In this document: piece after piece, positions 1-6,466 of the stretch
Layout: each line of letters begins with the position of its first letter
Numbering within the stretch: position 1 is the stretch's first letter
DNA from: a virus
Lineage: Duplodnaviria > Heunggongvirae > Uroviricota > Caudoviricetes
Direction: 5' to 3' (one strand)
Virus record (IMG/VR): IMGVR_UViG_2606217106_000014
Coordinates: 1-6,466 of that record
Length of the DNA stretch: 6,466 bases
Position numbers and translations under genes: made by a program
Notes under the pieces: generated by a model
Told to the model about the DNA's origin: nothing
Databases searched by the model: none
What the model saw: only the letters and a program-made list of their open reading frames with translations

Positions 1-328
1 CACAAGCAACTGATAATGCCCCCGGAGCAGGAGCATCTGTAGCACAGCGCGGGGTGTCGATAAGTTCCACTGGAACCAGAGTCGGAGAGGCCGGAAAAGA
101 TTGTGATACTGTAGGGCCTACAATAGTTGGAGGCATTCTACGAGAAATACGTCCTTCTCTTTGCCAGAGGCGTAGCCATTTAAAAATCAGGTTGTTATCA
201 ACGCCATGTTCCCGGGCCAGTTGTGCAACATTGGCATTTGGTTTCGAAGCCAGTTCAACCATATGAAGTTTAAATTCATTAGAAAATATCCGGCGGGTTC
301 CGGAGCGCCAGTCTGTAGGTTTATCCAT
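1..328 (-). CDS. IS transposase OrfA-like helix-turn-helix protein, N-terminal part (gene continues past window start)
   Basis: Not in the ORF track because it has no stop in the window. Reverse-strand translation from ATG (complement of 326-328) gives MDKPTDWRSGTRRIFSNEFKLHMVELASKPNANVAQLAREHGVDNNLIFKWLRLWQREGR..., open to position 1. The pattern FSxEFK...VAQLAREHGV..NLIFKWLR is typical of IS OrfA HTH domains. GGAG lies 8 nt upstream on the minus strand. Confidence 0.6.
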   Translation of the reverse strand, partial: MDKPTDWRSGTRRIFSNEFKLHMVELASKPNANVAQLAREHGVDNNLIFKWLRLWQREGRISRRMPPTIVGPTVSQSFPASPTLVPVELIDTPRCATDAPAPGALSVAC

Positions 329-341
329 CAATAGAACTCCG

Positions 342-368
342 TCTAATTTAGAAGGAGCTCTAATTTAG
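342..368. repeat. Two exact 10-bp direct repeats TCTAATTTAG (342-351 and 359-368) separated by 7 bp
   Basis: Read directly from the sequence. They lie between the OrfA start and the putative IS terminus, so they may be subterminal transposase-binding repeats. Confidence 0.5.
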
Positions 369-473
369 TCTGCAAGGAGCAGGTGTTACAGACGGCATTG
401 GCTTTACGCTTACCTTACTCTGAACGCCCACCGCGTCCGTCCCGCACATTCCAGCAACGCATCTGGAGGTAAC

Positions 474-1520
474 GTGCGGGTATTACTTCGACCTGTTCTG
501 GTACCGGAACTCGGGCTGGTGATCGTTAAGCCGGGCCGTGAATCCATGCCGGTATTCCACAATACCCGGGTACTGGTGGAGCCGGAACCGAAAAGCATGC
601 GTAATCTGCCGTCCGGGGTCGTTCCTGCCGTTCGCCAGCCGCTGGCGGAGGATAAATCATTACTGCCATTTTTCAGCGACGAACGAGTGATTCGTGCTGC
701 TGGTGGCGCTGGCGCATTGTCTGACTGGTTACTGCGCCATGTTAAATCCTGCCAGTGGCCACACGGCGATTATCACCACAGTGAAACCGTCATTCACCGT
801 TATGGTACCGGCGCAATGGTGTTGTGCTGGCACTGCGACAACCAGCTGCGCGACCAGACCTCCGAATCACTCGGGCAACTTGCTCACCAAAACCTGTCTG
901 CATGGATGATTGACGTCATACGCCATGCAATGAATGGCTCGCAGGAACGGGAATTATCGCTGGCTGAATTATCCTGGTGGGCGGTCCGCAATCAGGTGGC
1001 GGACGCGCTACCGGAAGCGGTATTACGTCGTTCGCTGGGGTTGCGTGCGGAAAAAATCCGCTCAATGTACCGTGAAAGCGACATCGTACCGGGAGAGCAG
1101 ACCGCCACCAGCATACTGAAGCAGCGCACAAAAAATCTTGCGCCGCTGCCTCACGCCCACCAGCAAACCCCGCCACAGGAAAAGACGGTGGTCAGCATTG
1201 CTGTTGATCCGGAGTCTCCGGAATCTTTAATGAAGCGACCTAAACGTCGCCGTTGGGTAAATGAGAAATATACGCGCTGGGTAAAGACACAGCCGTGTGC
1301 GTGTTGTGGTAAGCCAGCCGACGATCCCCATCACCTGATTGGTCATGGTCAGGGCGGAATAGGGACAAAAGCCCACGATATTTTCACGCTACCGTTGTGT
1401 CGGGAGCATCACAACGAACTTCATGCTGATCCGCTGGCATTTGAAGAAAAGCATGGTTCCCAGATTGATTTAATTTTTCGTTTTCTTGATCGCGCCTTTG
1501 CAACCGGCGTGCTCGGGTAA
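474..1520 (+). CDS. DUF968-family prophage protein (YdfU-like) with C-terminal Cys/His HNH-like motif
   Basis: 348-aa ORF with GTG start preceded by GGAGG (465-469). C-terminus CACCGKPADDPHHLIGHGQGGIGTKAHDIFTLPLCREHHNELH has CxxC...HH...C..HH..H spacing resembling an HNH/zinc-finger nuclease fold. Position immediately upstream of rusA and Q matches lambdoid nin regions. Confidence 0.8.
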   Translation: MRVLLRPVLVPELGLVIVKPGRESMPVFHNTRVLVEPEPKSMRNLPSGVVPAVRQPLAEDKSLLPFFSDERVIRAAGGAGALSDWLLRHVKSCQWPHGDYHHSETVIHRYGTGAMVLCWHCDNQLRDQTSESLGQLAHQNLSAWMIDVIRHAMNGSQERELSLAELSWWAVRNQVADALPEAVLRRSLGLRAEKIRSMYRESDIVPGEQTATSILKQRTKNLAPLPHAHQQTPPQEKTVVSIAVDPESPESLMKRPKRRRWVNEKYTRWVKTQPCACCGKPADDPHHLIGHGQGGIGTKAHDIFTLPLCREHHNELHADPLAFEEKHGSQIDLIFRFLDRAFATGVLG

Positions 1521-1532
1521 AAGAGGTTACTG

Positions 1533-1907
1533 ATGCGTATAGAGTTTGTTTTGCCTTACCCGCCGACGGTGAACACCTACTGGCGTCGTCGTGGCAGCAC
1601 ATATTTTGTATCAAAAGCCGGTGAGCGTTATCGCCGGGATGTGGCACTTATTGTCCGCCAGCAGCGGCTGAAATTAAACCTGTCCGGAAGGCTGGCAATA
1701 AAAATTACTGCAGAGCCACCGGATAAGCGCCGTCGTGACCTGGACAATATTCTGAAAGCACCACTGGATGCACTGACGCATGCGGGGCTTCTCATAGACG
1801 ACGAGCAGTTTGATGAAATCAATATTGTGCGCGGTCAGGTCGTTCCCGGTGGGCGGTTGGGCGTGAAAATTTACGAAATAATGCATGACGGGCAGGTCAA
1901 AAAATGA
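1533..1907 (+). CDS. rusA: RusA-family Holliday junction resolvase (crossover junction endodeoxyribonuclease)
   Basis: 124-aa ORF with RBS AAGAGG (1521-1526). PPDKRRRDLDNILKAPLDALTHAGLLIDDEQ matches the RusA catalytic core of E. coli RusA ([30 protein letters not shown]), as recalled. Confidence 0.9.
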   Translation: MRIEFVLPYPPTVNTYWRRRGSTYFVSKAGERYRRDVALIVRQQRLKLNLSGRLAIKITAEPPDKRRRDLDNILKAPLDALTHAGLLIDDEQFDEINIVRGQVVPGGRLGVKIYEIMHDGQVKK

Positions 1908-2725
1908 AGCTGGAAGATTTACCGAAATACTATTCCCCGAAATCGCCTGGCCTGACCGATGCGTCCGCCTCGACATCAAAAGATGCGCTGAGTATCACTG
2001 ATGTGATGGCCGCGCAGGGCATGACACAAAATCGGGCTGAGATGGGTTTTTCTGCGTTCCTTAGGAAAATGGGCATTAGTATGAATGACAGAGAGCGGGC
2101 AACAGAATTGCTGACAGAATATGCACTCAGTCGGTGTGATCGCGTGGCGGCGTTAAGAAAACTCCCGGCAGAAATAAAACCGGTAGTGATGCGCATTATG
2201 GCTTCGTACGCTTTTGAGGATTATGCCCGCAGCGCAGCGAGTAAAAAGCAGTGCCCTTGTTGCTATGGGGAAAAATTTATTGAAAGCGTAGTTTTTACAA
2301 ACAAGGTCCAGTATCCGGATGGTAAGCCGCCGGTATGGGCAAAGTGTACGAAAGGTGTGTATCCGTCTTACTGGGAAGAATGGAAAAAAGTCAGGGAGGT
2401 GGTAAAAGTTGCCTGTCCGGAGTGTGGCGGAAAGGGTGAGGTTTCCACCGCCTGTAAGGATTGCCGTGGGCGTGGTGTCGCCATTCATCGTGAAGAGTCG
2501 GTAAAACGTGGTATGCCTGTTATCAGAGACTGCCAGCGTTGTGGTGGTCGTGGCTGTGAAAGACTACCATCAACGGAGGCATTTAATGCCATATGCAAAG
2601 TGACGAGTGCTATCACGCTTGATACGTGGAAAAAATCAGTGAAACGCTTTTACGATACGTTGGTGGTTCGGTTTGACATTGAAGAGGCATGGGCGGAGCG
2701 GCAGTTAAAGAGGGTAACGCGATAG
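1904..2725 (+). CDS. Q: Lambda-family late antiterminator Q with expanded CxxC zinc-binding region
   Basis: 273 aa. N-terminus (YYSPKSPGLTDASASTSKDALSITDVMAAQGM) and C-terminus (TWKKSVKRFYDTLVV...RVTR) align by eye with lambda Q. Four CxxC motifs, three of them CxxCxGxG (CPECGGKG, CKDCRGRG, CQRCGGRG). ATG overlaps the rusA stop (ATGA at 1904-1907). Confidence 0.85.
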   Translation: MKLEDLPKYYSPKSPGLTDASASTSKDALSITDVMAAQGMTQNRAEMGFSAFLRKMGISMNDRERATELLTEYALSRCDRVAALRKLPAEIKPVVMRIMASYAFEDYARSAASKKQCPCCYGEKFIESVVFTNKVQYPDGKPPVWAKCTKGVYPSYWEEWKKVREVVKVACPECGGKGEVSTACKDCRGRGVAIHREESVKRGMPVIRDCQRCGGRGCERLPSTEAFNAICKVTSAITLDTWKKSVKRFYDTLVVRFDIEEAWAERQLKRVTR

Positions 2726-2730
2726 TGTTG

Positions 2731-2775
2731 TTGATTTTTCCCGAATCTGTGGTAAATTTGCTCTAACGATGGGCG
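2731..2775 (+). promoter_or_regulatory. pR'-like late promoter with qut (Q-utilisation) site
   Basis: TTGATT (2731-2736), 16-bp spacer, extended -10 TGgTAAATT (2750-2758), then TGCTCTAACGATGGG. This closely resembles lambda pR' (TAAATTTGACTCAACGATGGG), including the AACGAT pause-inducing element (2765-2770). Sits directly downstream of Q. Confidence 0.7.
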
Positions 2776-2806
2776 TTTTATGCCTGACGTTATAAGATTT
2801 TTTACA

Positions 2807-2831
2807 CCCCGCCGCCTGGCGGGTTTTTTTA
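2807..2831 (+). terminator. tR'-like intrinsic terminator
   Basis: Stem CCCGCC (2808-2813) / GGCGGG (2818-2823), loop GCCT, then T7 (2824-2830). Predicts a short pR' transcript of about 65 nt. Confidence 0.75.
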
Positions 2832-2952
2832 TGACTGAAATCGCGTCAGTACAGTAAACGCGCTGGTGGCGGTGAATACCTGTCTTTCAGCTTGCTGGCT
2901 TTTTCGACAAGAGTTATTGGTGTGTCACGTTAACCGGAAAAGGGAAAAAGAC

Positions 2953-3150
2953 ATGCTAAAACAGCAGGATATGACAGAAACCGCCAGAGTAGTGTTTAAT
3001 GAATTAAGCGTTACCGAACCGGCGACAGTCGGGGAGATTGCACAGAATACTTACCTTTCACGCGAACGCTGCCAGTTAATACTGACCCAGCTGGTTATGG
3101 CGGGTCTGGCAGACTATCAGTTCGGTTGTTACAGACGCCTTCCGCAGTGA
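2953..3150 (+). CDS. Small hypothetical protein (65 aa), possible winged-helix DNA-binding protein
   Basis: ATG at 2953 preceded by AAAAGGGAAAAAGAC. Translation MLKQQDMTETARVVFNELSVTEPATVGEIAQNTYLSRERCQLILTQLVMAGLADYQ has an HTH-like segment (TVGEIAQNTYLSRERCQLIL). The track's upstream start at 2866 has no RBS. Function unknown. Confidence 0.45.
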   Translation: MLKQQDMTETARVVFNELSVTEPATVGEIAQNTYLSRERCQLILTQLVMAGLADYQFGCYRRLPQ

Positions 3151-3160
3151 AGGCTTTTTT
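3137..3160 (+). terminator. Intrinsic terminator overlapping the stop codon of the small ORF
   Basis: Stem GCCTTC (3137-3142) / GAAGGC (3149-3154), loop CGCAGT, then T6 (3155-3160) and ATTT. Confidence 0.65.
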
Positions 3161-3300: not shown

Positions 3301-4350
3301 ATGCTTAATACTGTAAAAATATCCAGTTGTGAGTTAATCAACGCCGACTGCCTGGAATTTATCCGGTCGTTACCCGAAAATTCTGTTGACCTGATAGTCA
3401 CGGACCCGCCGTACTTTAAAGTGAAGCCTGAGGGCTGGGATAACCAGTGGAAGGGCGACGATGATTACCTGAAGTGGCTGGACCAGTGTCTGGCGCAGTT
3501 CTGGCGGGTGCTGAAACCTGCCGGAAGTCTTTACCTGTTCTGTGGTCATCGCCTGGCATCTGATATCGAAATCATGATGCGTGAACGCTTCAGTGTGCTG
3601 AACCATATTATCTGGGCGAAGCCGTCCGGACGCTGGAACGGATGCAACAAGGAAAGCCTGCGGGCGTATTTCCCCGCCACAGAGCGCATTCTGTTCGCGG
3701 AACATTATCAGGGGCCGTATCGTCCGAAAGATGCCGGGTATGCGGCGAAGGGCAGTGCACTGAAACAGCATGTGATGGCCCCGCTGATTTCTTACTTTCG
3801 TGATGCGCGCGCGGCCCTGGGGATAACGGCAAAACAGATTGCAGATGCCACAGGAAAGAAAAACATGGTGTCGCACTGGTTCAGTGCCAGTCAGTGGCAG
3901 TTGCCGAACGAAAGCGATTATCTGAAATTACAGGCGCTGTTTGCCCGGGTGGCAGAAGAGAAACATCAGCGCGGTGAACTGGAAAAGCCCCACCACCAGC
4001 TGGTGGATACGTATACGTCACTGAACCGGCAGTATGTGGAGCTGCAGAGTGAATATAAGCATCTGCGGCGGTATTTTGGTGTGACGGCGCAGGTGCCGTA
4101 CACGGATGTGTGGACACATAAACCGGTGCAGTTCTATCCCGGGAAACATCCGTGCGAAAAACCGGCAGAAATGCTGCAGCAGATAATCAGCGCAAGCAGT
4201 CGTCCGGGTGACCTGGTTGCAGATTTTTTTATGGGCTCAGGTTCAACGGTAAAGGCGGCTATGGCGCTTGGGCGTCGTGCAATTGGTGTTGAGCTGGAGA
4301 CCGGACGTTTTGAGCAGACAGTCAGGGAAGTTCAGGATTTAATCGTTTGA
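3301..4350 (+). CDS. Orphan DNA N6-adenine methyltransferase, beta class (N6_N4_Mtase type)
   Basis: 349 aa. Motif IV DPPY near the N-terminus (LIVTDPPYF) and motif I FxGxGS near the C-terminus (DFFMGSGSTVKAAMALGRRAIGVE), i.e. the permuted IV->TRD->I order of beta-class amino-MTases. No restriction endonuclease partner in the window. Confidence 0.9.
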   Translation: MLNTVKISSCELINADCLEFIRSLPENSVDLIVTDPPYFKVKPEGWDNQWKGDDDYLKWLDQCLAQFWRVLKPAGSLYLFCGHRLASDIEIMMRERFSVLNHIIWAKPSGRWNGCNKESLRAYFPATERILFAEHYQGPYRPKDAGYAAKGSALKQHVMAPLISYFRDARAALGITAKQIADATGKKNMVSHWFSASQWQLPNESDYLKLQALFARVAEEKHQRGELEKPHHQLVDTYTSLNRQYVELQSEYKHLRRYFGVTAQVPYTDVWTHKPVQFYPGKHPCEKPAEMLQQIISASSRPGDLVADFFMGSGSTVKAAMALGRRAIGVELETGRFEQTVREVQDLIV

Positions 4351-4399: not shown

Positions 4400-4475
4400 G
4401 GCCCTTTAGCTCAGTGGTGAGAGCGAGCGACTCATAATCGCCAGGTCGCTGGTTCAAATCCAGCAAGGGCCACCA
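4400..4475 (+). tRNA. tRNA-Ile2 (anticodon CAU, ileX/ileZ-like; automated tools may call it Met)
   Basis: 76-nt cloverleaf: acceptor GGCCCTT/AAGGGCC, D-arm GCTC...GAGC, anticodon loop CTCATAA, T-arm GCTGG-TTCAAAT-CCAGC, discriminator A, encoded CCA. Near-identical in layout to E. coli ileX as recalled. Confidence 0.85.
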
Positions 4476-4482
4476 TCACATA

Positions 4483-4559
4483 CCGCCATTAGCTCATCAG
4501 GAAAGAGCGCCAGCCTTCGAAGCTGGTTGCGCGGAGTTCGGGTCCCCGAAGGCGGTCCA
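4483..4559 (+). tRNA. tRNA-Arg-like, apparent anticodon UCG, with non-canonical features
   Basis: D-arm GCTC...GAGC, anticodon stem CCAGC/GCTGG with loop CTTCGAA, T-loop TTCGGGT, 3' CCA. Acceptor CCGCCAT/AAGGCGG has one mismatch and starts with C; the T-stem has one mismatch. Boundaries +/- 2 nt. Confidence 0.6.
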
Positions 4560-4572
4560 TTATCTGTATCCT

Positions 4573-4649
4573 GCGTTGTTAGCTCAGCCGGACAGAGCAA
4601 TTGCCTTCTAAGCAATCGGTCACTGGTTCGAATACAGTAGAACGCGCCA
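4573..4649 (+). tRNA. tRNA-Arg (anticodon UCU)
   Basis: Acceptor GCGTTGT/AGAACGC (one mismatch), D-arm GCTC...GAGC, anticodon stem ATTGC/GCAAT with loop CTTCTAA, T-loop TTCGAAT, discriminator G, encoded CCA. Confidence 0.8.
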
Positions 4650-4664
4650 CACTTATTTTCCCTG

Positions 4665-4688
4665 GCTCGCTTTTGCGGGCTTTTTTTT
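4665..4688 (+). terminator. Intrinsic terminator downstream of the tRNA cluster
   Basis: Stem GCTCGC (4665-4670) / GCGGGC (4675-4680) with one G-U pair, loop TTTT, then T8 (4681-4688). Confidence 0.6.
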
Positions 4689-4900
4689 AAATGTCTCATA
4701 ATTCAGGCGGTTGACTGTTGTCTGGTTTGCGGGGAGTTTGTTAAAAGAAACTGGCATGGTGAATCCCCCTGTGCGGAGGGGCAATCAGCAACTGGTGTTT
4801 TGTCACCGACCCTTATCCTTTCTGTGCGGGTTCAGGTGCTGATACTGAACTCACCGGGAGGCACCCGGCACCATGCAATGGCACATAGCGCCACTCTCCA

Positions 4901-4925
4901 GCCCCTCTCCGGAGGGGCTTTCTTA
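4901..4925 (+). terminator. GC-rich hairpin with weak U-tract (terminator-like or RNA structural element)
   Basis: Perfect 8-bp stem AGCCCCTC (4901-4908) / GAGGGGCT (4913-4920), tetraloop TCCG, then TTCTT. Confidence 0.35.
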
Positions 4926-4930
4926 TGGAC

Positions 4931-4958
4931 AAAAAAATCCCGCGCTGGGAGACGCGGG
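4931..4958 (-). terminator. Minus-strand intrinsic terminator
   Basis: On the minus strand: stem CCCGCG (4958-4953) / CGCGGG (4944-4939), 8-nt loop, then A and T7 (4937-4931). Confidence 0.45.
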
Positions 4959-5152
4959 CGGCAAGGAATAAACAACAAAACGTGAAGTAATATTTCAGTT
5001 GGCGAATAATATCCGACAGTAATCACTCTGCGCAATAGCGCGGCCTTTTTCGTATTGCGGGCTGTTGTCTATCTTCTGCCATTGTCCTGTAACTTCCGGA
5101 CTTCAGCCCGCTCCTCATTTTACTCACAATATTATCCAGGCCGGGAGGATTC

Positions 5153-6466
5153 ATGGCATTTAAACACTATGACGTGGTCAGGGCGGCGTCGCCGTCAGAC
5201 CTTGCGGAGCGACTGACACAAAAACTGAAGGAAGGCTGGCAGCCGTTTGGCAGTCCTGTGGCTATCACGCCTTATACACTGATGCAGGCCATTGCCGCAG
5301 AGGGTGATGTGACCACGCCTGTGGTTGTGCCCGACACAGGGGCTGGTGGCTCTCCGGGAGTGGCTACCACTGAACCGGAGTATTACTACGTTATTCCCCA
5401 GGCCGGGCAGTCGAACGGTATGGCCTATGGTGAGGGGCTTCCTCTGCCGGAGACCTATGATCGCCCTGACTCCCGTATTAAGCAGCTGGCCCGTCGCAGC
5501 ACTGTGACGCCGGGTGGTGATACCTGTGCATACAATGACGTTATTCCGGCAGACCACTGTCTGCATGATGTTCAGGACATGAGCGCACTTAACCATCCTC
5601 ATGCAGACCTGAGTAAGGGCCAGTACGGGACTGTCGGTCAGGGGCTGCATATTGCCAAAAAACTGCTGCCTTATATCCCGCAGAATGCCGGGATTCTTCT
5701 GGTGCCCTGTTGCCGTGGCGGGTCTGGTTTAACCGTGGGTAATGACGGCACGTTCAGCGAAACGTCTGGCGCATCGGCAAATTCAGCCCGCTGGGGAGTG
5801 GGTAAACCGCTGTATCAGGATTTTCTCTTCCGTACAAAAGCGGCGCTGTCGAAGAACCCGAAAAACAGGCTTCTGGCCGTGGTATGGATGCAGGGGGAAA
5901 ATGATCTTGCGGACGGCAGTCAGCAGCACAGCGGCCTGTTTACCACTATGGTGCAGCAGTTCAGGGCTGATATGGCTGCATATTCTGCACAGTGTGTTGG
6001 CGGAAGTGCTGGCTCGGTGCCGTGGATTTGTGGTGACACCACGTATTACTGGAAGAATCTTAACGCCGATAAATATGAGGCGGTATATGGCGGTTACAAG
6101 GGCAGGGAAGCACAGAATATTTTCTTTGTTCCTTTTATGACGGATGAGAATGGACAGAGCACGCCAACGAATGCTCCGGCGGAAGACCCGGATATTGTGG
6201 CTGTCGGGTATTACGGTGCAGCATCCCGAACCCAGGGCAGTTTTGTTTCGACACAGCGTGACAGCCATTTCAGCTCATGGGCACGCAGGGGCGTCATTTC
6301 AGACCGTCTGGCCTCAGCTATTATGCTCCATGCAGGGCGCACGGCTGAATTGATGCGCGGGCAGACCGTGACACCACCGGATGAGAAGCCGTCACCTGAT
6401 ACACCATCAAAACCGTCCACGCCACCCGCAGACACCACGACGATGAGTACGCTATTTGCTTACCGG
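5153..6466 (+). CDS. nanS-p: NanS-p-type prophage sialate O-acetylesterase (DUF1737 N-domain + SASA/SGNH esterase domain), 5' partial - runs off window end
   Basis: Not in the ORF track because there is no stop in the window; 438 codons open from ATG 5153 (RBS GGGAGGA) to 6466. Translation MAFKHYDVVRAASPSDLAERLTQKLKEGWQPFGSPVAITPYTLMQAIAAEG... then YYYVIPQAGQSNGMAYGEG (GQSN catalytic-serine block), and a Pro/Thr-rich linker TPPDEKPSPDTPSKPSTPPADTTT near the window end. Confidence 0.85.
   Translation, partial: MAFKHYDVVRAASPSDLAERLTQKLKEGWQPFGSPVAITPYTLMQAIAAEGDVTTPVVVPDTGAGGSPGVATTEPEYYYVIPQAGQSNGMAYGEGLPLPETYDRPDSRIKQLARRSTVTPGGDTCAYNDVIPADHCLHDVQDMSALNHPHADLSKGQYGTVGQGLHIAKKLLPYIPQNAGILLVPCCRGGSGLTVGNDGTFSETSGASANSARWGVGKPLYQDFLFRTKAALSKNPKNRLLAVVWMQGENDLADGSQQHSGLFTTMVQQFRADMAAYSAQCVGGSAGSVPWICGDTTYYWKNLNADKYEAVYGGYKGREAQNIFFVPFMTDENGQSTPTNAPAEDPDIVAVGYYGAASRTQGSFVSTQRDSHFSSWARRGVISDRLASAIMLHAGRTAELMRGQTVTPPDEKPSPDTPSKPSTPPADTTTMSTLFAYR

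Follow-up and report, generated by a model that had tools for sequence, protein, structure and literature searches.

A minus-strand RNA gene opposite STnc100 in a lambdoid prophage is a probable member of the Hfq-binding EcOnc08/EcOnc21/EcOnc42 small RNA family

Convergent pairs of small RNAs (sRNAs) have been described in the moron slot downstream of PR′ in the prophages of E. coli O157:H7 Sakai (Tree et al. 2014, PMC4104026). For prophage Sp4, Table S2 of that study lists three Hfq-CRAC peaks, EcOnc05 on the plus strand (1179806-1179914) and EcOnc08 (1179938-1180010) and EcOnc21 (1180016-1180101) on the minus strand, and a Northern blot with the EcOnc08/21/42 probe detected an RNA of ~271 nt. 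The same work mapped the 5′ ends of AsxR and AgvB by TAP-dependent RACE as primary ends and found the 5′ ends of EcOnc03 to be heterogeneous. In EPEC, RIL-seq identified a new sRNA of prophage PP6, E2348C_1409.E2348C_1408.IGR (NC_011601, minus strand 1444797-1444978), with a length estimated from RNA-seq at 182 nt and, in Table S6B, the remark “Homologues identified in EHEC (EcOnc08/EcOnc21/EcOnc42)” (Pearl Mizrahi et al. 2021, PMC8550237). A 2021 review lists the function of EcOnc42/21/08 as unknown. The work on HnrS (EcOnc10-12) and the EcOnc27 HUS machine-learning study concern other sRNAs, EcOnc08, EcOnc21 and EcOnc42 are absent from the main text of the RNase E CLASH paper, and a published 5′ end for an RNA of the EcOnc08/21/42 type was not found in the literature.

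The DNA analysed here, referred to as the window, is a stretch of 6,466 nucleotides that represents the late-regulatory region of an stx-negative lambdoid prophage (Table 1). The minus-strand sRNA locus falls between STnc100 and nanS-p, with Q, the methylase and the tRNAs upstream. Its convergent partner is STnc100, which is of the EcOnc05/EcOnc27 type; the EcOnc05 probe maps to the Sakai homologue. STnc100 is full-length in the window and homologous to Sakai EcOnc05/EcOnc27 (sRNA103). Its central part (~4790-4826) is variable, with a 15-nt indel relative to Sakai Sp4, and it is related to PasD (2026 preprint). The tRNA with the CAT anticodon is called tRNA-Met by ARAGORN, and its Sakai homologue is annotated as ileZ, tRNA-Ile.

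Table 1. Coordinates of annotated and predicted features in the window
Feature	Position	Strand	Remarks
DUF968 protein	474-1520		
RusA	1533-1907		
Antiterminator Q	1904-2725		
DNA methylase	3301-4350		
Three tRNAs	4400-4649		CAT anticodon, Arg-TCG, Arg-TCT
STnc100 sRNA	4725-4930	+	Rfam RF02076, 143.2 bits, E 1.3e-32
Predicted short sRNA, ~70 nt	4931-5000	-	predicted start A5000; contains G/U-rich stretch, seed and terminator
Intrinsic terminator	4931-4958	-	stem 4958-4952 / 4945-4939, loop 4951-4946, A4938, T7 4937-4931
Seed CCUUGCC	4960-4966	-	extended form UCCUUGCCG, 4967-4959; complementary to GGCAAGG/GGCAGGG
-10 hexamer TATTAT	5006-5011	-	read from sequence; 18 nt downstream of -35
Upstream segment of longer isoform(s)	5011-5096	-	equivalent to EcOnc21 Hfq-CRAC peak
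-35 hexamer TTGCGC	5030-5035	-	read from sequence
Candidate upstream promoter ATGCCA-17-GATAAT	5131-5159	-	predicted start ~5124, ~194-nt RNA
DUF1737+SASA protein (NanS-p type)	start 5153		

Comparison with the Sakai and EPEC loci makes it highly probable that 4931-5035 on the minus strand is a prophage-encoded Hfq-binding sRNA gene of the EcOnc08/21/42 family and the minus-strand partner of STnc100 in the moron slot. The region is ~97% identical to Sp4; identity to Sp4 is 95% over 4650-5260, and 4880-5150 differs by ~4 SNPs. Sequence identity to the Sp4, Sp15 and EPEC PP6 copies runs across promoter, body and terminator, and the position is that of the family, the minus-strand partner of a convergent pair with the moron cargo on one side and nanS-p on the other. 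In lambdoid and Stx prophages the cargo flanking this pair is a tRNA cluster or toxin genes. When the Sp4 peaks were mapped to the window by alignment, EcOnc05 fell at ~4786-4909 (plus strand, inside STnc100), EcOnc08 at 4933-5005 (minus strand) and EcOnc21 on the segment given in Table 1. The EcOnc08 peak is almost exactly the predicted transcript (4931 to ~5000). As a check on the coordinates, the EcOnc05 probe lies inside the mapped EcOnc05 peak, with a shift of ~0 at Sp4. The copies in Sp4 and Sp15 (the Stx1 phage) share strand, slot and terminator with the window copy, which differs from Sp4 by 3 SNPs in the 70-nt core: A rather than G at 4999, A rather than T in the loop (4946) and A rather than C after the stem (4938). 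Otherwise we saw no substantive difference, except that the published size of ~271 nt exceeds the 70 nt proposed earlier. The minus-strand small RNA ending at the terminator that the preliminary description had postulated is thus borne out by the EcOnc08 peak and by the EPEC copy, which is a RIL-seq sRNA. Hfq binding and expression were observed for the near-identical copies of Sakai and E2348/69 and would apply to the window copy by homology. The feature is already known and partly characterised, so its detection here is a rediscovery, and current understanding is unchanged by it.

The intrinsic terminator proposed for the minus strand was recovered both by a terminator scan of that strand and by the folds. 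Its stem, CCCGCGTCTCCCAGCGCGGG (4958-4939), has 7 pairs, 6 of them G-C, around a loop of 6, and is followed by ATTTTTTTGT. Among the terminator-like sites in the window it ranks second of 15, where shuffled sequences lead one to expect 6.6 ± 3.3. Pairing is kept in the variants through U-G to C-G changes, and the T run ranges from 6 to 8. In the predicted fold of the 70-nt RNA the terminator hairpin alone is stable, and the seed UCCUUGCC(G), directly 5′ of the terminator, is kept unpaired in the window copy. Sequence and predicted fold show the marks of the general class of Hfq-dependent trans-acting sRNAs with a Rho-independent terminator, namely a G+C-rich 3′ hairpin, at least 6 U and a single-stranded seed upstream. 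Covariance folding across homologous prophages, suggested earlier as a check, bore out the terminator hairpin and nothing else in consensus and covariation analyses of 29 and 19 unique sequences; true compensatory covariation was not found in the variant alignments, where U-G to C-G changes were the only ones seen. Single-sequence folds of the 194-nt and 271-nt RNAs contain a long-range helix that covers the seed; it was lost in the consensus, and we make no claim for it. The earlier remark that no annotated feature type explains the orientation of the terminator does not hold, since the convergent architecture of exactly this slot had been published by 2014 (PMC4104026).

A further terminator-like hairpin, CTGCGCAATAGCGCGG followed by CCTTTTT (5028-5050), lies on the plus strand and overlaps the minus-strand -35. 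It pairs better as plus-strand RNA (U-G) than as minus-strand RNA (C-A), and its conservation extends to the AsxR, AgvB and EcOnc03 loci. Together with the minus-strand terminator it makes up an inverted repeat on either side of the sRNA cassette (4933-4946 / 5037-5050, 86%).

The EPEC locus aligns with the window free of gaps from the terminator to the nanS-like start (4931-5153), and the sRNA sequence printed for EPEC matches window 4983-4931. The two loci share this sequence and the seed CCUUGCC; the EPEC locus differs in an IS element beyond an STnc100 remnant and in its estimated length of 182 nt. The EPEC RIL-seq partners include the 5′UTRs of cfa (767 chimeras) and dppA (197), emrA, tir, espC, pcm, a LEE gene and the yagU intergenic region; in 9 of the 10 listed interactions the EPEC sRNA came second in the chimeras, which is the sRNA position, in the tenth it took both positions, and it never stood in the first only (PMC8550237). 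The motif derived from these targets, GGCAAGG/GGCAGGG (MEME E 0.0096), is complementary to the EPEC sRNA just 5′ of its terminator (PMC8550237), and in the window copy CCUUGCC matches GGCAAGG in the same way. CCUUGCC is invariant in 12 copies derived from BLAST, including one at 75% identity; in the copies from viral contigs its invariance is by construction, the search pattern having contained the seed. Predicted duplexes of the seed with the target sites in print have energies between -13 and -21 kcal/mol, values that are partly circular because the sites were selected by motif. A published interactome with a defined seed points to a trans-acting, Hfq-dependent sRNA rather than to an antisense function in the late operon, and we consider it most likely that the RNA acts in trans through Hfq and is not mainly antisense to that operon. 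Hfq would bind the 3′ hairpin and U tail and make the seed available to host and virulence mRNAs that carry GGCAAGG-type sites.

Three further Sakai sRNAs, AgvB (RF02702), AsxR (RF02703) and EcOnc03, occupy the same slot in the same orientation on the same promoter scaffold, and, as predicted for the window sRNA, they are short, Hfq-bound and end at an intrinsic terminator. The bodies and terminators cannot be aligned with confidence, as identity is only scattered. The window sRNA lacks the conserved ~42-nt 3′ region of AgvB and AsxR (GUAUCUCAUGC..UUGCCCGAACCCAYUCGGGC), the RF02702 and RF02703 models gave no match in the window at E≤1, and the predicted length is 70 nt versus 51-60 nt for AgvB, AsxR and EcOnc03. 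Judged by its sequence, the window sRNA is not a member of the AgvB/AsxR Rfam families. Sponges of the AgvB/AsxR type target core sRNAs (GcvB, FnrS). Most of the partners listed for the EPEC homologue are mRNAs, two are intergenic regions and none is a core sRNA, so a sponge role is not indicated.

PasA and PasC of EPEC (PMC8550237; Zhu, Shabalina & Storz 2026 preprint) are likewise encoded by prophages, Hfq-dependent and linked to a sialate esterase gene and STnc100/PasD, and a longer transcript is the presumed source of the mature short RNA. PasA is found beyond the esterase gene, adjoining holin and lysozyme genes, and its printed seed region differs. On the strength of this location we rejected identity with PasA/PasC. 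At ~1060613-1060672 (minus strand) of EPEC NC_011601, in prophage PP4, an annotated “CDS”, E2348C_1013, is convergent with pasD1 and forms very many RIL-seq chimeras with the dnaK and entC 5′UTRs and the nlpD intergenic region. This “CDS” could represent an sRNA of the same slot that was mis-annotated as coding.

The sigma70-like promoter claimed for the sRNA, TTGCGC and TATTAT with an 18-nt spacer, is present in the minus strand exactly as described. The -35 shares just 3 of its 6 positions with TTGACA, and for this reason the promoter is absent from the list produced by the automated scan. Sigma70-like sites of equal or better quality number 16 in the window, compared with 14.2 ± 4.5 in Markov-1 random sequences. 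By itself the match is at chance level, and it is credible only through the comparative and published evidence. The comparison covered 50 copies drawn from phages, viral contigs and E. coli genomes, which reduce to 34 distinct sequences. In all 34 variants TTGCGCAG and TATTATTC (5011-5004) are invariant, and the spacer is always 18 nt long, yet varies at 6 or more positions. In phage PhiR5_2, TTGCGC is unchanged although the other arm of the plus-strand hairpin (5028-5043) is mutated. The promoter and the terminator pairing are thus both conserved in related prophages, one of the points on which the original proposal had been made to depend, and the invariance of the hexamers is weak evidence because all copies are closely related.

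An alignment of four loci (the window, AsxR in Sp5, AgvB1 in Sp10 and EcOnc03 in Sp9) shows a common block, GAAAAAGGCCrCGC..TTGCGCAG, followed at exactly 18 nt by the -10. The -10 reads TAAAAT in the three Sakai anti-sRNA loci and TATTAT, in the same column, in the window; past it the four loci diverge into different sRNA bodies and terminators. The mapped +1 of both AsxR and AgvB is the sixth nucleotide after the -10, and we therefore predict that transcription in the window starts at A5000. Together, these alignments suggest that the proposed promoter is plausibly real.

The size of ~65-75 nt given in the preliminary description agrees with the 70 nt from A5000 to the end of the T run and with the CRAC peak at 4933-5005, and it is smaller than the reported species of ~271 and ~182 nt. 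A short primary sRNA together with one or more longer isoforms that share its terminator is the likely arrangement, of which the longer RNA alone has been seen directly. In lysogens, sigma70 RNA polymerase would start at about A5000 and stop at the T7, yielding an RNA of ~70 nt, and longer isoforms of ~180-270 nt would start upstream, near the nanS-p start, and use the same terminator. The published Northern probe, AATAATATCCGACAGTAATCACTCTGCGCAATAGC, corresponds to window plus strand 5005-5039; the short form is undetectable with it because the probe overlies the proposed promoter and lies upstream of the predicted start.

A substantial possibility, if not the one we favour, is that the locus makes only an RNA of ~180-270 nt that starts near or inside the 5′ end of nanS-p, with TTGCGC-18-TATTAT inactive and the short form arising by processing. 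The ~271-nt signal obtained with a probe on the proposed promoter speaks for such an RNA, as do the EPEC estimate, which corresponds to window 4931-5112, the second Hfq peak (EcOnc21) and the chance-level match of TTGCGC-18-TATTAT; given the two longer sizes, the 73-nt CRAC peak could be just the Hfq site on a longer RNA. A start is also on offer, since ATGCCA-17-GATAAT, the only other minus-strand sigma70-like site upstream, scores better than the internal one and would yield ~194 nt. Its -10 reads GATAGT in several variants, and its conservation is uninformative because it shares sequence with the ribosome-binding site and start codon of nanS-p. The 271-nt RNA would need a start at ~5201, for which no sigma70-like promoter was found on the minus strand, and this counts against an exclusively long RNA. 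So does the finding that the TTGCGC-18-(-10) scaffold yields TAP-dependent 5′ ends in AsxR and AgvB, as do the fixed hexamers around a variable spacer and the EcOnc08 boundary at 5005, which is 5 nt from the predicted start and separated from EcOnc21 by a gap at 5006-5010. Moreover, in strains 94-3024 and “10” the cassette and the 3′ end of STnc100 persist in a degraded prophage remnant adjoining tolA; homology there (386-800 of the retrieved loci) extends only from ~window 5085, and nanS-p and the upstream candidate promoter are absent. On this evidence we retain a short primary sRNA with longer isoform(s) as the likely arrangement.

The other readings concern what the RNA does and whether there is an RNA gene at all. 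The preliminary description presented the transcript as antisense to the late operon, and physically it is antisense to the PR′ late transcript; a long isoform that starts at 5124 or beyond would also cover the ribosome-binding site and start codon of nanS-p. That it mainly opposes the Q-antiterminated late transcript or nanS-p translation, through convergent transcription or RNase III-sensitive duplexes, is nevertheless unlikely. The short form lies clear of every coding sequence and ribosome-binding site, the RIL-seq chimeras tie the RNA to unlinked mRNAs through a defined seed, some genomes keep the cassette with no adjoining nanS-p, and the sister cassettes AgvB and AsxR act in trans from the same slot. 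Cargo genes of moron slots may lie on the opposite strand, and the terminator could be left over from a lost minus-strand moron gene or serve as a transcriptional insulator, with the chance-level promoter match being just that and no RNA gene present. Such a relic or insulator is very improbable in view of the signals that Hfq-CRAC, Northern blotting and RIL-seq have given for near-identical copies and of a cassette conserved from promoter to terminator in ~1000 genomes. The program-made list of open reading frames also contains a 67-aa ORF with a TTG start (5035-4832, minus strand), and the match carries hypothetical-protein annotations in some phage records. This ORF passes through two terminator hairpins, and a T run of 6, 7 or 8 would shift its frame from copy to copy; we therefore take it not to be coding. 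RefSeq has no annotation here in the genomes listed, and a small protein is the reading to which we give the least credence. We thus continue to regard the locus as a gene for an Hfq-dependent sRNA acting in trans.

The cassette is present in 992 of 5426 complete E. coli genomes (~18%), in 1447 copies with at most 6 per genome, and RefSeq annotation at the sRNA locus is absent among the genomes listed. Phage records with the cassette number 55, among them those of Stx1-, Stx2a- and Stx2d-converting phages; in a few of the 55 a “hypothetical protein” is annotated over the sRNA match. In viral contigs, ~40 of 120 pattern matches were genuine after filtering, and the 14-base seed pattern yielded nothing but random matches in genome contigs. 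An Rfam search of the whole window at E≤1 left the minus-strand element with no match except a chance-level one to anti-hemB (19 bits, E 0.66).

The sRNA lies in or beside Shiga-toxin cargo slots and is found in Stx1 and Stx2 phages, and its published partners include virulence (tir, espC, LEE) as well as envelope and metabolic (cfa, dppA, emrA) mRNAs; it is unnamed and has neither an Rfam entry nor a RefSeq annotation. The comparison provides a precise gene model for annotation and links the EHEC and EPEC data sets, and the promoter scaffold held in common with the anti-sRNAs makes the question of one RNA or two isoforms directly testable. We speculate, as a rather doubtful extension of these results, that the ~70-nt RNA is an independent primary transcript from the scaffold common to AgvB, AsxR and EcOnc03, that the slot is an “sRNA cassette exchange” site, that the body acts on dppA, cfa and virulence mRNAs and that the longer isoform masks the seed or opposes nanS-p. 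If so, the -35 would stay fixed, and the -10, body and terminator would be swapped as a unit; the G/U-rich GUUUUGUUGUUU stretch and CCUUGCC seed of this cassette would act directly on those mRNAs, making it the functional counterpart of the anti-GcvB AgvB in the same slot of sister prophages.

Several observations concern the published coordinates and the rest of the window. At Sp5 the coordinates of Tree et al. 2014 lie ~135 bp below those of NC_002695.2 (AsxR at 1268627-1268680 versus the published 1268494-1268542), so re-use of Table S2 at Sp5 needs a correction of ~135 bp; at Sp4 the table matches NC_002695.2. The window as such is absent from all complete E. coli genomes of the collection, where it is matched at best with 92% identity over 90% of its length. 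The segment 4650-5160 alone is 99.4% identical in strain SCPM-O-B-9504, and the window is therefore a mosaic of prophage modules. On the plus strand, 2726-2830 holds a strong terminator, CCCGCCGCCTGGCGGG followed by T7 (2808-2823), ~85 nt past the Q stop codon. This region gave no match in the Rfam search of the window and resembles the PR′-tR′ short-transcript region, the StxS-producing position in Stx phages. The interval from Q to the methylase contains an ORF of 65 aa that gave no match in Pfam (2953-3150, plus strand); it is followed by its own terminator-like hairpin (3137-3154) and is possibly a small moron gene.
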